DNA from: Deltaproteobacteria bacterium
Lineage (GTDB): Bacteria; SAR324; NAC60-12
Assembly: GCA_018645085.1 (NCBI GenBank)
Contig: JABGPG010000238.1
Location: forward strand, 11,699-56,455
Reading direction: 5' to 3'
Length of the DNA: 44,757 nt
This document shows, piece by piece, positions 16,646 to 21,840 of this stretch. The stretch's first letter is position 1, and every line of letters begins with the position of its first letter. Under the pieces are notes generated by a model, which made no database searches, was not told the origin of the DNA, and saw only the letters and a list, made by a program, of their open reading frames with translations. The translations under genes were made by a program, and so were the position numbers.

Positions 16646-17206
16646 GTGTACGAGACATCAGATATTAGAAAAGGGCTGCGCTTTGAGATGGATGGAGATC
16701 CATTTGTTGTAGTGGATTTTCAGTTTGTTAAACCGGGAAAAGGAACAGCGTTTACACGGACTAAAATCCGTAACATGATAAGCGGCGCAGTACTTGACCG
16801 TACATACAAGTCAGGTGAAAAACTCAAACCTGCTGATACAGAAGACCGGCAAATGCAGTTTTTGTATAATGACGGTGAATTCCATTTTATGGATAATAAC
16901 AACTATGAACAGGTGAGTCTGGAAAGCAGTGCTGTCGGTGACGCGGTGAATTATCTGACTGAAAATATGCTGATTGAAGTTGGTTTTTTCAAGGGCCGTT
17001 CAATCGGATTAAGCCTGCCGAATTTTGTTGTTCTGGAAGTTACAGAAACTGCTCCCGGAGAAAAAGGGAACACAGTCACTGGAGCTTCTAAACCGGCCGT
17101 AGTGTCAACTGGTTACAGTGTCAATGTGCCTTTATTCGTCAATGAAGGAGATCAACTTCGGATTGATACACGAACCGGTGAATATGTGGAGCGAGTCAAG
17201 GGCTAG
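16646..17206 (+). CDS. efp: Elongation factor P
   Basis: KPGKG loop (Lys34 type), VNVPLFV and DTRTGEYVER. GTG start. Confidence 0.97.
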   Translation: MYETSDIRKGLRFEMDGDPFVVVDFQFVKPGKGTAFTRTKIRNMISGAVLDRTYKSGEKLKPADTEDRQMQFLYNDGEFHFMDNNNYEQVSLESSAVGDAVNYLTENMLIEVGFFKGRSIGLSLPNFVVLEVTETAPGEKGNTVTGASKPAVVSTGYSVNVPLFVNEGDQLRIDTRTGEYVERVKG

Positions 17207-17394
17207 TAGATCGTCCAGTTTGTCCTGTGAGGATGTGGCGTTCCCGGAGCGTAGTTATTCCGCCTATTCGAAAGAAAGTTGAAGTGAAATTTCCGGTCTG
17301 TTATCTGTTTCTGCTCAGTTCACTTCCATAAAAAGTTCATTATAATCCTCCTTTTTACCAGCCTTAATCAAAGTTGGAAATTTCATTAAACCTC

Positions 17395-18690
17395 ATGTCC
17401 AACTCTTCACAGACTTTCAGCAACTCACTTTTATCAGGACGCTGCCACGGACGCGTCCTCGAAGTTGTTTGCGGGAATGAGAAGTCGGAAGAGCCAACTT
17501 CCGAAAATCATAAAAACATTATTGTTTTAGTTAAAGACCAGTTGTATGCACTGAATTATCAAGGTGATACAGAACTCTCTGCAGGCTCTTTAATTTCATT
17601 TGAGCTTGGCGAAAATAGTGAAGTTGTAAAGCTGAAAACGGAAGGCCCCGCCGTCAATTTTGAGGCAGAAGGCGATTTACTGCGCTGGAGACGTCCGGCA
17701 ATTAATCCTTCTAGAATGAAACTTCTTCGGATTCGTCAGCAAATAATACATGGGATCAGGGAGTGGTTTGAACTGCAGGAATTTATTGAAACTGAAACTC
17801 CTTTACTGGTTTCCGCACCCAGTCCTGAGTCACAATTCTCACCCGTAAAAACTGATTCCGGATTTCTGATTACCTCTCCTGAGTTTCAGATGAAACGTTT
17901 GCTGGCAGGTGGTTTTGAAAAAATATACCAGCTCGCGCGTTGTTTCCGTAAAGCCGAAAGTGGTCCCCTGCACAATCCAGAATTTACCATGCTCGAATGG
18001 TATCGTAGCAATGAAGCACTGGAAGTTTTGATGTCGGATATTGAACAGCTGGTGCTGCATCTCAGCAAAACTATTACTGCGGAAAACTTTCCGGTGAAAA
18101 TTCCACTTCCGCCATGGCCACGTGTGACAGTCTGTTCTTTATTTAAAAAACATTTGAACATCATTTTGGACGGTTGCGAATCTGCCTCACAATTAAGGGA
18201 AAAAGCACAACTATCCGGACATGCGGAATTACTGGTTGATCTTGCAACAGAGCCAAACCTTACAGAATCACTGGCTTATGAACAAATATTTTTCCGGCTC
18301 TGGAATCATATCGAAGCGGAGTTTGCCGATTCTACTCCATTGTTTGTGTATGAATGGCCGTTACCGCTGGCAAGTCTAGCCCGGCCTTGTCCGCAACGTT
18401 CCGGGTTTGCTGAACGAGTTGAACTATATGTGGACGGTATGGAGTTGGCAAATGGATTTAGAGAATTGACAGATGCTGCCGAACAAAGACGACGCTTTGA
18501 ACAGGATTTGAAAAACAGGCTTTCTGAGGGACGCAGTTCTGTGCCCTTAGATGAAAAGTTTCTAAGATGTCTTGAGCAGGGTCTGCCTGAAAGTTCCGGA
18601 ATGGCAATGGGAGTTGACCGCTTGGTCATGTGGCTTTGCGGTGCAAAGCAGATTCGTGAAGTGCTGTGCTTTACTGAAGATGAAATATAA
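17395..18690 (+). CDS. epmA: EF-P lysine aminoacylase EpmA (GenX/PoxA) with N-terminal extension
   Basis: TSPEFQMKRLLAGG, HNPEFTMLEWY, ELANGF and GMAMGVDRL. Directly after efp. ATG at 17395 preferred over TTG at 17374. Confidence 0.88.
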   Translation: MSNSSQTFSNSLLSGRCHGRVLEVVCGNEKSEEPTSENHKNIIVLVKDQLYALNYQGDTELSAGSLISFELGENSEVVKLKTEGPAVNFEAEGDLLRWRRPAINPSRMKLLRIRQQIIHGIREWFELQEFIETETPLLVSAPSPESQFSPVKTDSGFLITSPEFQMKRLLAGGFEKIYQLARCFRKAESGPLHNPEFTMLEWYRSNEALEVLMSDIEQLVLHLSKTITAENFPVKIPLPPWPRVTVCSLFKKHLNIILDGCESASQLREKAQLSGHAELLVDLATEPNLTESLAYEQIFFRLWNHIEAEFADSTPLFVYEWPLPLASLARPCPQRSGFAERVELYVDGMELANGFRELTDAAEQRRRFEQDLKNRLSEGRSSVPLDEKFLRCLEQGLPESSGMAMGVDRLVMWLCGAKQIREVLCFTEDEI

Positions 18691-18757: not shown

Positions 18758-19075
18758 ATGGAACGCAGCATCATTCACATGATCCTCCACTTTTTGGTAC
18801 CTTTCATGGTTGCCAAAACTGCTTGGAAAGAAAACTGGTTACGCCCCTTTTTGATCATGGTGTTAACAATGGCAGTAGATTTGGATCACCTGCTGGCAGA
18901 CCCAATCTTCGATCCTAACCGTTGCGGTCTTGGTTTTCATCCTCTTCACAGTTGGCTGGCTATTGCAGTTTACTTCGCTCTTTTGTTTAGTCCACGTTTC
19001 CGGATTCCAGCTTTAGGTCTGCTGATTCACATGTTTTTGGACGGCACAGATTGTTTGTGGATGCTCTGGATGTGA
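18758..19075 (+). CDS. Small His-rich membrane protein (DUF6122-like)
   Basis: HFLVP, VDLDHLLADPIFDPNRC..GFHPLHS and HMFLD motifs. Hydrophobic. Confidence 0.7.
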   Translation: MERSIIHMILHFLVPFMVAKTAWKENWLRPFLIMVLTMAVDLDHLLADPIFDPNRCGLGFHPLHSWLAIAVYFALLFSPRFRIPALGLLIHMFLDGTDCLWMLWM

Positions 19076-19146
19076 GCTTATTCTTCCTTTATAAAAGCTC
19101 CTGTACAAAATAATTTGAAAAAATCAACCTTTTTTTAAAAAAAAGC

Positions 19147-19175
19147 TTGACAAGCTACTAGCACTCTTGTAAAGT
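19147..19175 (+). promoter_or_regulatory. Sigma70 promoter
   Basis: TTGACA (19147-19152), 17-nt spacer, TAAAGT (19170-19175). Confidence 0.75.
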
Positions 19176-19184
19176 GAGTGCTAA
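19158..19184. promoter_or_regulatory. CIRCE element (HrcA operator)
   Basis: CTAGCACTC-N9-GAGTGCTAA, one mismatch from the consensus TTAGCACTC-N9-GAGTGCTAA, overlapping the -10 box. Confidence 0.92.
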
Positions 19185-19313
19185 CAAATCATGAATTCAT
19201 GCTTCGGGTAGTCCAGCAGAGGGCGGAACGGTTTTTAGATTCGTCTGACAACTCAACGATTCAGGGCATTCGAAATTTAATTATCAACAACTTTTAATTA
19301 TTAAGAGGAAAAT

Positions 19314-19535
19314 ATGGCTAGAATGGCTAAAAAAGTAAAAGAAATTTCACACGAAGAAATCAGTGATGCAATGTCCCGCTTTCTTAACAAAGGTGGCGTG
19401 ATCAACAAGATCGAATACAATGACAACGGTTTTTTGTTGGGCAATGATCTTGCGTTAGATGATTCCTATACAGAAGCATCTGATACAGTCATGAGTCAGT
19501 TGCACATGGACTTTGAGCCGGAAACCCGGATCTGA
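19314..19535 (+). CDS. Small protein with SutA-like RNA-polymerase-binding motif
   Basis: RBS AAGAGG. DAMSRFLNKGGVINKI resembles the SutA core AMEEFLSRGGKVQEI. Acidic C-terminal half. Confidence 0.6.
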   Translation: MARMAKKVKEISHEEISDAMSRFLNKGGVINKIEYNDNGFLLGNDLALDDSYTEASDTVMSQLHMDFEPETRI

Positions 19536-19562
19536 AGCACTGCTTCTCAGCAAGTCTTAAAA

Positions 19563-19597
19563 TTTCGGGCGGATACTTCAAAATATCTGCCCCGAAA
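19563..19597 (+). terminator. GC-rich hairpin after the SutA-like gene (possible terminator between convergent genes)
   Basis: TTTCGGGCGGATA...TATCTGCCCCGAAA imperfect inverted repeat. The U-tract is imperfect. Confidence 0.5.
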
Positions 19598-19733
19598 CCT
19601 CCCTTTATTTTCTACCTCTCATTTATCTTTCCAGCAATTCTTTACAAAAGATCTTCTCTTGCGTATAGTCTTGTGGAGGATGCTCAAGAATTACAGTGCT
19701 TTTATTTAACAAGTGGATTTGCAGGCATTCAGG

Positions 19734-20144
19734 CTAAGCAGCTAAATCTTTGAAGGAATTCAAAATTTTACCTACATTGGCACGAACGGAAGGAACATCA
19801 AGGTTGTCATCATCGAAATACGGATGATCGTCTGCGACACCAATACGCTTCATAATTTTTTTAATAATAACACGTTCCTCGTCTTCAAACACACCGTCTG
19901 ATGCTGCGACTAAAGCCATTAGTTCAACAAGTGCGTGCTTTGCTTCTGTGGATTCAATGTGTTTTAACATCTCTTCCAGAGAAGTATTTGCCTTCATTTG
20001 CTCTTGTTCTTCCGGAGTAATTGCAGCAGCCTTGAAGGTAGCAATCAGAACTTTCTTTTCGGCAACGTGCATTTCTCTTTCAGCATGTGCTAAAAAGTTC
20101 ACTACAGTTAAGATATTAACAAGTTCGTCGCGACTGATAGCCAT
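19734..20144 (-). CDS. TerB/DjlA-N-like domain protein
   Basis: Two-repeat helical pattern LAHAEREMHVAE ... VAASDGVFEDEE. Confidence 0.7.
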   Translation of the reverse strand: MAISRDELVNILTVVNFLAHAEREMHVAEKKVLIATFKAAAITPEEQEQMKANTSLEEMLKHIESTEAKHALVELMALVAASDGVFEDEERVIIKKIMKRIGVADDHPYFDDDNLDVPSVRANVGKILNSFKDLAA

Positions 20145-20274: not shown

Positions 20275-20691
20275 ATGGCTCATGATTCTCGCTATCACCC
20301 TGAATGGGAAACGGTTTCACGTTATGTAAGAGAGTTGTTTAACTACCACTGCGCGAGGTGCGATAAAGATTGTAGAAAAACTAAAAATGCTCAAATGGTT
20401 TTGCAAGTTCACCATATTGATGAAAATCCGGCAAATAACGCACTCGAAAATCTTATTCCGCTTTGTGCCAGTTGTCATCTTAAAATAGAAGGTGAGGCAC
20501 GTTTACATGCACCTTACCGTGAACAACAGTTAGAATTGTTTGAAGATCATACCTACATGAGCAGGATGAAGGAAATGCGTGAGAATGCGTTAGCAAAATT
20601 CGGATCAGCAGTTAAGCCGGGAGTTTCCGTACTAGACGCAGAAACATATGAAACAAATGCTATTGAGTGGGAAATTAACGAGCCTTCTTAG
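20275..20691 (+). CDS. HNH endonuclease domain protein
   Basis: CARC...LQVHHIDENPANNALENLIPLCASCH zinc-finger HNH. Confidence 0.8.
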   Translation: MAHDSRYHPEWETVSRYVRELFNYHCARCDKDCRKTKNAQMVLQVHHIDENPANNALENLIPLCASCHLKIEGEARLHAPYREQQLELFEDHTYMSRMKEMRENALAKFGSAVKPGVSVLDAETYETNAIEWEINEPS

Positions 20692-20739: not shown

Positions 20740-21840
20740 TTAACGTCTTCTCCGTCCAAAACCTCCAAAGCCAAATCCCCTGCTGCGGCGTCTTCCGCCA
20801 AAACTGAATTTTTTCCTTGGTACAACTCTACGTTTTGAAACAGCGGGTTTTCTCTGTGATGTGCTACTGCCAAAACCTCCTCCGGCAGTTTTACGGTTGG
20901 TGGAGCGGAATTTTGTGCTCTTGATATTATTCAGGGATTTCTTTGAAGTTGAACGGAACTTGTTTGACGAGACACTTCTACCGCCGGCTGTCTTTGCGGA
21001 AGAAGATGAGGGCGTGGCCTTTTTCATTTTTGAAGTGGACGCTCCTCTGCGGTTTTGAATAGAACTAACTGACCTTGCTCCACCGTAACCGTAACCATAA
21101 CCTAATCCACCTCCCCAGATATATGGTGGTCTAAAGAGCATTGACATCATCATTGATGTCATTAAAAGATTCGTCATGCTGTAACCGGTACCATAATATG
21201 GAGCGTATGGAGCTCCGGCTGACTGGTACATCTGCGGATTAGGAGTAGACTGCAACTTCATCTCATCACCCGTACCACGTACAACGGAGGCAGTCATGAT
21301 TTCGATAGATTTATTTTCAGCAATATCTTTCCAGGCAGCTTGATCTGAGCCTGACGGCAATGTGCTAACTTGATCGGGATCCGGAACCAAAATTGAAAAT
21401 AACAGAAAATCCGCATCGCCTTTTTCGGTTTGAGGTACTATCAAAACATGATCCGCCATTCCATCCTGATTCAAATCGATTGTACTTATATCACGCACTT
21501 TGTTTGATATTTTGTTGACCAGAGTCGGTAGAAAATCTTTGTCAGAAACCTGAGCCTGTGACGTTTCTCTTAACGCTTCAGAGGTGATTGCAGGGATTAA
21601 TTTTGGATCCAGATGTTCCGTTAGATCAATGCCAAGTTTTTCGATAGCTTCCGCGTTAAGTTGATTGCTGACTCCAATTGGAATATTTTGGGAAGAATAA
21701 TTGTAGCGTGCGGATTCCTGACTTTTATCTTCTCCAAAAAATACCCAGTAAAATCCTAAGAACAGAATTGCGATGAGGATACCCTGCGTAGAAAACAATT
21801 TTTCTAAACCGTTAGGAGGTTCATTATCTTTGTTGGCCAT
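20740..21840 (-). CDS. Hypothetical membrane-anchored protein with DxNxDG loop and Ser/Arg/Gly-rich basic tail
   Basis: N-terminal TM helix, DLNQDGMAD, and a low-complexity C-terminus ending GGFGRRRR. 366-aa ORF. Confidence 0.75.
   Translation of the reverse strand: MANKDNEPPNGLEKLFSTQGILIAILFLGFYWVFFGEDKSQESARYNYSSQNIPIGVSNQLNAEAIEKLGIDLTEHLDPKLIPAITSEALRETSQAQVSDKDFLPTLVNKISNKVRDISTIDLNQDGMADHVLIVPQTEKGDADFLLFSILVPDPDQVSTLPSGSDQAAWKDIAENKSIEIMTASVVRGTGDEMKLQSTPNPQMYQSAGAPYAPYYGTGYSMTNLLMTSMMMSMLFRPPYIWGGGLGYGYGYGGARSVSSIQNRRGASTSKMKKATPSSSSAKTAGGRSVSSNKFRSTSKKSLNNIKSTKFRSTNRKTAGGGFGSSTSQRKPAVSKRRVVPRKKFSFGGRRRSRGFGFGGFGRRRR

Follow-up and report, generated by a model that had tools for sequence, protein, structure and literature searches.

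A SutA-RBD-like small protein encoded behind a CIRCE: a very likely non-chaperone member of the HrcA regulon in SAR324 bacteria

A stretch of 44,757 bases (here called the window), which forms part of contig C282 in a SAR324 assembly of 3.1 Mb that is 88% complete (genome G000; the names on near-identical homologues point to SAR324), carries a near-consensus controlling inverted repeat of chaperone expression (CIRCE) on the promoter of a gene for a 73-residue protein. Comparison of this locus with those of related genomes suggests that the gene very likely does belong to the HrcA regulon, as a non-chaperone member not reported before, and that its product is plausibly a stress-induced factor that binds RNA polymerase. 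The explanation favored here, and considered rather probable as a whole, is that the CIRCE is a working HrcA operator and that the protein most likely docks on the protrusion of the polymerase beta subunit and alters transcription during stress. The HrcA-CIRCE mechanism is the established means of class I heat-shock regulation, of which the groESL and hrcA-grpE-dnaK-dnaJ operons of Bacillus subtilis are the type. The usual description of an HrcA regulon is a few chaperone operons, and non-chaperone targets of HrcA are also known. The type of regulation at the present locus is classical; what is new is the nature of the target and the fact that a SAR324 family conserves it in the core of the regulon.

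The locus is laid out as follows, with positions counted along the window and evidence in brackets:

19137 to 19144, plus strand: A-tract just 5' of the -35 hexamer, a possible UP-like element (sequence reading; mostly invariant in 17 loci of the genus)
19147 to 19152, plus strand: -35 hexamer TTGACA (promoter scan; invariant in 17 of 17 genus loci)
19158 to 19184, no strand assigned: CIRCE operator (pattern scan, 17 of 18 positions; arm positions 2-9 and the entire right arm invariant in the genus)
19170 to 19175, plus strand: -10 hexamer TAAAGT within the CIRCE spacer (promoter scan; invariant in 17 of 17 genus loci)
19182 to 19313, plus strand: predicted 5' leader of about 130 nucleotides (start placed from the -10 position)
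19314 to 19535, plus strand: 73-residue open reading frame, or ORF (ORF list; Pfam PF20661, E = 4e-4; coding-type substitution pattern; 264 homologues)
19563 to 19597, no strand assigned: hairpin between the convergent 73-residue ORF and a TerB-like gene (folding, z = -2.57)

The CIRCE, CTAGCACTCTTGTAAAGTGAGTGCTAA, has the arms CTAGCACTC-N9-GAGTGCTAA and departs from the consensus TTAGCACTC-N9-GAGTGCTAA solely by a C for T at position 1. With up to three mismatches allowed, it was the one match in the window, against 0.01 expected from the shuffles that served as the window control. The predicted σ70 promoter joins TTGACA to TAAAGT through a 17-nucleotide spacer, agreeing with the consensus at 10 of 12 positions, and its -10 hexamer makes up the final six nucleotides of the CIRCE spacer, so that the operator overlaps the -10 box. 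The A-tract could add an UP-like element to this arrangement. A transcription start near 19182 is predicted, consistent with the position of the -10 box, and the leader that follows lacks any ORF and ends with a ribosome-binding site, AAGAGG, at 19303-19308. The 73-residue ORF is the sole co-oriented ORF downstream of the promoter. An initial annotation of the window had described just such an arrangement, namely a CIRCE matching 17 of 18 positions over the -10 box of a strong σ70 promoter, then a lone 73-residue ORF and a hairpin, and the scans, the ORF list and the folding bear it out at each of these points.

The repressor itself is encoded in the same genome, a point that this annotation had asked to have confirmed. 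The hrcA gene lies on contig C155 (PF01628, 208.8 bits; 207.4 bits on the ORF), is preceded by a CIRCE of its own and is followed by grpE and dnaK. A whole-genome scan at the same limit of three mismatches returned five sites, and the reversed pattern used as the genome control returned none. Besides the site in the window, these sites (all placed by scan, with neighboring genes named by Pfam) were:

G000, contig C205, 4280 to 4306: CIRCE with 0 mismatches, 31 nucleotides 5' of a Clp_N/AAA (clpB-type) gene
5' of hrcA-grpE-dnaK: CIRCE with 1 mismatch
5' of groES-groEL: CIRCE with 2 mismatches
Inside a gene: CIRCE-like site with 3 mismatches, taken as chance

Read by eye, the clpB-type promoter has the same layout as that in the window, with -35 TTGCAA, 17 nucleotides, and -10 TATAGT in the CIRCE spacer. 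In three congeneric species, an additional perfect CIRCE lies 5' of an hsp20 gene adjoining clpB; in the genome studied here, hsp20 is located behind the clpB-type gene without a CIRCE of its own. Judging from these sites, HrcA in this lineage seems to control a clpB-type disaggregase and a small heat-shock protein in addition to groESL and dnaK. Across the genomes of the family, one to 12 CIRCE-like sites were counted per genome, and zero to five matches to the control pattern. A search for σ32 gave no match to TIGR02392 above the cut-off, the best matches being 142 bits (a 608-residue frame) and 55.7 bits (a 256-residue frame) against the 323 bits required; this is an absence from an 88%-complete assembly and not a proof of absence. 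HrcA may be the main heat-shock regulator of this genome.

In its parts, this system resembles the HrcA-CIRCE system of the B. subtilis type: both have an inverted repeat of the 9-N9-9 form overlapping a σ70-type promoter, an hrcA gene autoregulated by way of its own CIRCE, and a small regulon (four good sites here) that includes groESL and dnaK. It differs in that the SAR324 regulon adds the clpB-type gene, with hsp20 in some species, and a 73-residue protein that is neither a chaperone nor a protease and that carries a motif like that of a transcription factor.

Conservation within the genus supports the operator and its link to the gene. The genus set comprised 18 genomes, the window's own included, and an orthologue of the 73-residue protein was found in 17 of them; the remaining genome (G016) is 86% complete. 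At all 17 loci, a CIRCE with zero or one mismatch lies 108-139 nucleotides 5' of the start codon, save that one locus shows two mismatches, the extra one being an N. A block of 50 nucleotides holding the A-tract, the -35 hexamer, the CIRCE and the -10 hexamer is invariant at 37 of its 50 positions, and among these are both whole hexamers, positions 2-9 of the CIRCE arm and all of the right arm. The leader and the flank upstream of the block have diverged until they are barely alignable, and proteins encoded by neighboring genes are only 59-71% identical in the most distant congeners. The length of the leader is kept in the genus, and its sequence is not.

The same link extends beyond the genus. 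In a family set of 45 genomes from 12 genera, the best match per genome to a profile of the family (alignment A1) was examined; these genomes are related to each other and hence are not independent trials. Eleven genera had a family match, and in seven of them a CIRCE accompanied the orthologue, one solely through a site with three mismatches and one by way of hsp20. No match to the profile was found in genus g6. The genera outside the window's own in which a CIRCE was found are:

g12, three genomes: CIRCE with 0-1 mismatches, 14-29 nucleotides upstream of the gene
g8, two genomes: CIRCE with 1 mismatch, 55-78 nucleotides upstream of the gene
g4, one genome: CIRCE with 1 mismatch, 142 nucleotides upstream of the gene
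g7, two genomes: CIRCE with 1 mismatch, 158-164 nucleotides upstream of the gene
g2, three genomes: CIRCE with 3 mismatches, 33-54 nucleotides upstream of the gene
g5, three of three genomes: CIRCE with 0 mismatches, 520-550 nucleotides upstream of the gene and 5' of hsp20

In g5, the order is CIRCE, hsp20 and then the orthologue some 90-120 nucleotides further on. The genes that surround the ORF in the window (EpmA-like, DUF6122, TerB and HNH) retain this position within the genus alone and are absent from the loci of other genera; since the neighbors differ between genera, the operator travels with the gene. That a CIRCE should recur so often next to the same small gene far exceeds what chance would give. 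The initial annotation had proposed that CIRCE conservation be looked for near orthologues, and it is present at the 17 genus loci and in six further genera, with zero or one mismatch in all but the one genus with three.

That annotation had also raised the possibility that the site is the relic of a relocated chaperone operon. A CIRCE left behind by, for example, a CIRCE-hsp20-gene operon whose chaperone has moved would imply no role for the 73-residue gene, and a few observations could be read in this way: the perfect CIRCE of g5 stands 5' of hsp20 with the gene 520-550 nucleotides downstream, the leader of about 130 nucleotides in the window's genus is unusually long and has no recognizable function, and the hsp20 of the window's genome lies elsewhere, behind the clpB-type gene. 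A relic would be expected to decay, yet the block has stayed nearly invariant across 17 species in which the flanks and the neighboring proteins have diverged. Moreover, the CIRCE encloses the -10 box of the gene itself, and in four other genera it lies 14-164 nucleotides from the gene, in unrelated neighborhoods and with no chaperone gene in between. The relic is judged very improbable. With hrcA in the genome and the CIRCE conserved, the membership in the HrcA regulon that had been proposed for the gene is supported, and regulation by HrcA, with induction under stress, is considered highly probable on the strength of these sequence comparisons.

Another possibility is that the transcript is itself the functional product, a regulatory RNA or thermosensor formed by the leader alone or by the short transcript in full, and that the ORF is incidental. 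Retention of a leader of 108-139 nucleotides across the genus despite its diverged sequence would suit such a role. Folding of the genus leaders (17 sequences, one of which was dropped for containing N) gave no consensus fold with RNAalifold, and the single-sequence z-scores scattered around 0, from -2.2 to +2.3 against mononucleotide shuffles. Similarly, a scan of positions 18900-19800 against Rfam at a permissive threshold found nothing near a gathering score, the best match reaching 23.9 against 90 bits. The ORF, for its part, evolves as coding sequence: among 11 ungapped orthologues, the variable sites at codon positions 1, 2 and 3 number 32, 14 and 62, and the protein is conserved at the protein level across genera (alignment A1). 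An RNA as the functional product is judged very improbable.

The end of the transcription unit can also be suggested. The hairpin 3' of the stop codon has a 13-pair stem with one bulge, the 101-nucleotide stretch around it folds with a minimum free energy of -21.1 kcal/mol, and it is likely a terminator. A simple terminator scan found none and did not call this hairpin, because its loop is 8 nucleotides long and the T-rich run begins several bases past the stem. Two neighboring genes delimit the unit:

18758 to 19075: DUF6122 gene, ending 5' of the promoter (ORF list, Pfam)
19734 to 20144, minus strand: TerB-like gene, convergent with the 73-residue ORF (ORF list, Pfam)

Since the DUF6122 gene ends before the promoter and the TerB-like gene is convergent, the 73-residue unit is monocistronic.

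The protein belongs to a narrow family. A search of 1.84 billion representative clusters retrieved 81 at E <= 1e-3 and 20 at 1e-10, and 264 homologues are present in a collection at 90% identity; of the 120 homologues listed, 23 carry a precomputed PF20661 label. Its N-terminus consists of 11 mostly basic residues (four K/R and one D/E) ahead of a helix region, an invariant Gly-Gly follows the helix, and beyond it lies a conserved stretch, I-x-K-I-x-Y-x-DNGFLL-x-ND. The C-terminal half is acidic, with nine D/E and one K/R in residues 35-73. An AlphaFold model of the monomer has a mean predicted local distance difference test score of 62, and the helix at residues 13-25 is its sole confident part; as modeled, the protein is small and acidic, for the most part disordered, and has a single confident helix.

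Two very long family representatives, P0129 (874 residues) and P0147 (4429 residues), match the 68-position family profile in seven and 11 separate stretches, respectively, which may be repeats of the module or low-complexity matches. In the ESM Atlas, a cluster with a score of 0.86 has PF20661 on 15% of its members, and the few taxon labels on the nearest clusters are of viruses (Uroviricota); these Atlas observations serve as leads only. The viral labels may reflect misbinned marine contigs or copies of the module borne by phages.

The protein also resembles part of SutA, a transcription factor of Pseudomonas aeruginosa, namely the segment by which SutA binds the beta protrusion of RNA polymerase. 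Residues 12-34 match Pfam PF20661 (SutA-RBD) with E = 4e-4 and 20.1 bits. The family matches as well: 14 of 15 aligned orthologues do so at E <= 0.01, with four above the 29.3-bit cut-off (31.4-33.1 bits), 10 below it and one without a match. In the reverse direction, the family profile finds the SutA chain of the cryo-EM structures 7F0R, 7XL3 and 7XL4 with E = 0.043, at chain residues 67-90. This SutA-type motif was not part of the initial annotation, and it makes the finding more specific than that of a small non-chaperone gene.

The match can be followed residue by residue. According to one study, substitutions in SutA at L67, M71, F74, L75, V81, I84, K60, R64 and G78/G79 impair binding (PMC9300723). 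With HMMER used to align the protein to chain 7f0r_G (the residue letters show an offset of +4 in the numbering of the PDB chain), L67, M71, F74, L75, G78, G79, V81 and I84 of SutA fall on I16, M20, F23, L24, G27, G28, I30 and I33. All eight hydrophobic and glycine interface positions are accordingly retained in the window protein; in the family, G27, G28 and I30 are invariant and F23 is nearly so. R64 of SutA aligns with H13, a position occupied by R in other genera, and K60 would fall on K9 if the helix runs on without a gap, which extrapolates beyond the aligned stretch.

The presumptive partner surface can be compared in the same manner. Residues 1-115 of the RpoB encoded in this genome are colinear with the P. 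aeruginosa beta chain, and among 15 SAR324 RpoB sequences S59 is invariant and E73 is at least 90% conserved. These two residue numbers are those given for the polar contacts of beta with SutA in the SutA report (PMC9300723). Such conservation agrees with, but does not demonstrate, the retention of a docking surface. The helix and Gly-Gly also occur elsewhere. Most family genomes have two to four matches to the motif, and in the window's own genome two paralogous small ORFs carry it without a CIRCE, both found by profile match:

G000, contig C8, 7499 to 7642, minus strand: motif in a 72-residue open frame
G000, contig C48, 5242 to 5370, minus strand: motif in an 88-residue open frame

From these matches, the helix-GG module seems to be a reusable anchor across several families of small proteins.

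A number of observations weigh against the favored explanation. On the side of the protein, the window sequence scores below the PF20661 cut-off (20.1 versus 29.3 bits), and the shared motif is only some 24 residues long. The match to the PDB chain is marginal at E = 0.043, and a designed protein does better on the same segment, at E = 0.021. The NCBIfam equivalog model for SutA, NF041490, reaches only 14.2 of the required 145 bits and covers positions 64-91 of 109. The acidic N-terminal domain and wedge loop of SutA are missing, and therefore the effect of the protein, even if it binds, need not resemble that of SutA. On the side of the operator, no CIRCE with four or fewer mismatches lies within 900 nucleotides of the best matches in g3, g9, g10 and g11; these matches may be paralogues. 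The three mismatches of the g2 sites are at a level where control patterns also occur (zero to five per genome). Between hsp20 and the gene in g5 lies a hairpin, accompanied by a T-run in L027, which makes co-transcription there uncertain. Finally, the support for HrcA binding or induction comes from sequence comparison. Binding of RNA polymerase by the 73-residue protein is given about an even chance.

The main competing explanation accepts that HrcA controls the gene and assigns the product to proteostasis, as a feedback modulator of HrcA or as an adaptor or co-factor of DnaK, ClpB or the small heat-shock protein; the RBD-like stretch would then be a generic amphipathic helix with a GG turn. 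A precedent exists in HagF of Chlamydia, reported to be a non-chaperone protein that is specific to its lineage, is repressed by HrcA, and in turn binds this repressor and weakens its action (PMC13750654). The position of the g5 gene directly behind a CIRCE-controlled hsp20 would fit such a role, the RBD match of the window protein lies under the curated cut-offs, and a designed helical protein fits the same segment of the profile about as well as SutA does. On the other hand, four orthologues exceed the gathering score of PF20661, all eight of the validated hydrophobic and glycine positions of the SutA interface are kept, and the protein shows no similarity to a chaperone, co-chaperone or HrcA-binding family in Pfam or NCBIfam. 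A proteostasis role is judged unlikely, though far from negligible.

Comparison with the characterized proteins helps to define what the SAR324 protein would be. Like SutA of P. aeruginosa (7XL3, 7XL4, 7F0R), it is small, mostly disordered and acidic, and its one helix leads into a Gly-Gly loop. Unlike in SutA, the RBD is N-terminal, preceded by just the 11 mostly basic residues, and the acidic residues lie in the C-terminal part; the SAR324 protein also has the Y-x-DNGFLL-x-ND block, the comparison with SutA being limited to the matched stretch of 24 residues. Identity as a SutA orthologue was considered and is ruled out by the NF041490 score and by the missing D/E-rich N-terminal domain and wedge loop. 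It is that domain and loop that are credited with the opening of the beta lobe by SutA, and SutA is described as confined to Alteromonadales and Pseudomonadales (PMC9300723). Control differs too: sutA of P. aeruginosa is reported to be driven by RpoS, FliA and Lrp (bioRxiv 10.64898/2026.06.26.734693), and the SAR324 gene stands under the site of a heat-shock repressor.

With HagF, the gene shares a restriction to one lineage, a non-chaperone product and, as predicted for the SAR324 gene, repression by HrcA along with the chaperone operons; HagF is set apart by binding HrcA (PMC13750654), in contrast to the RNA-polymerase-binding type of motif in the SAR324 protein. Through its helix-GG motif of about 24 residues, the window protein also has a match of 16 bits, below threshold, to the model for small proteins of the PFL_1563 family (NF058628). 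Most of 78 family representatives also match NF058628 below threshold, with the best at 47.9 bits and none reaching 60. More generally, an NCBIfam scan of these 78 of the 81 representatives (P0129, P0147 and P0163 were omitted for length) gave no match at a curated cut-off. No work linking SutA with HrcA was found, judging by titles, in the literature searched, and none on SAR324 with HrcA or heat shock was found among the matches listed.

A mechanism can be proposed on this basis. In unstressed cells, HrcA bound to the CIRCE around the -10 box would block access of σ70 RNA polymerase to the promoter. Under folding stress, the chaperonins on which HrcA activity depends would be titrated by unfolded proteins, the near-consensus promoter would open, and a short monocistronic mRNA of the 73-residue gene would be made alongside those of groESL, hrcA-grpE-dnaK and the clpB-type gene (and of hsp20 in some relatives). 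The 73-residue protein would then build up alongside GroESL, DnaK/GrpE, ClpB and Hsp20. It would attach to the beta protrusion of the polymerase by its N-terminal helix-GG anchor, with the acidic tail as the effector. If docking is SutA-like, this tail would leave the protrusion in the direction described as approaching σ region 3.1 (PMC9300723) and not by way of the gap between protrusion and lobe. The acidic tail is on the other side of the anchor, and therefore the effect on initiation could differ from that of SutA or even oppose it; an effect on transcription, where there is one, might go in either direction. The fullest version of this proposal is that HrcA directly controls, along with the chaperones, a dedicated polymerase accessory factor of the SutA-RBD type, with the anchor first and the acidic tail last, which would reprogram or protect transcription in proteotoxic stress in an organism for which no σ32 was found in the 88%-complete assembly. 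This version remains tentative, with somewhat less than an even chance of holding.

If true, the proposal would add a new branch to the class I heat-shock response and place SutA-like regulators far beyond the Gammaproteobacteria. It suggests that folding stress in an abundant deep-ocean lineage could act directly on the transcription machinery, with no heat-shock sigma factor in between, and that the polymerase-binding module of SutA could be used outside Pseudomonas-like bacteria in another architecture and in response to another signal. The 73-residue protein and the 50-bp promoter and operator would also provide a compact, testable model.

The locus is represented in RNA libraries. Of the 20 runs listed, 19 are recorded as RNA, and 19 contain at least half of the sampled words. 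Assembled contigs from four RNA runs, belonging to four studies, cover the ORF; they carry no transcript start, strand or level. In two runs, single contigs connect the DUF6122 and TerB-like genes. One run has a greater word depth over the ORF, and another has a contig that ends at 19197; both observations were considered and are unusable as evidence.

Three further features of the surroundings deserve mention:

16646 to 18690, plus strand: EF-P gene, then a class II lysyl-tRNA-synthetase-like gene (EpmA/PoxA-type, PF00152 at residues 111-435)
20275 to 20691, plus strand: stand-alone HNH endonuclease gene, 138 residues (Pfam)
20740 to 21840, minus strand: 366-residue ORF without a Pfam match

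The HNH gene adjoins the TerB-like gene in 15 of 17 genus loci, the remaining two loci ending before this position; as its position is kept in the genus, it is not a recent mobile insertion. The EpmA/PoxA-type gene encodes an N-terminal extension of about 110 residues without a Pfam match, and the C-terminal tail of the product of the 366-residue ORF is long, abounds in G, R, S and K, and ends in GGRRRSRGFGFGGFGRRRR.

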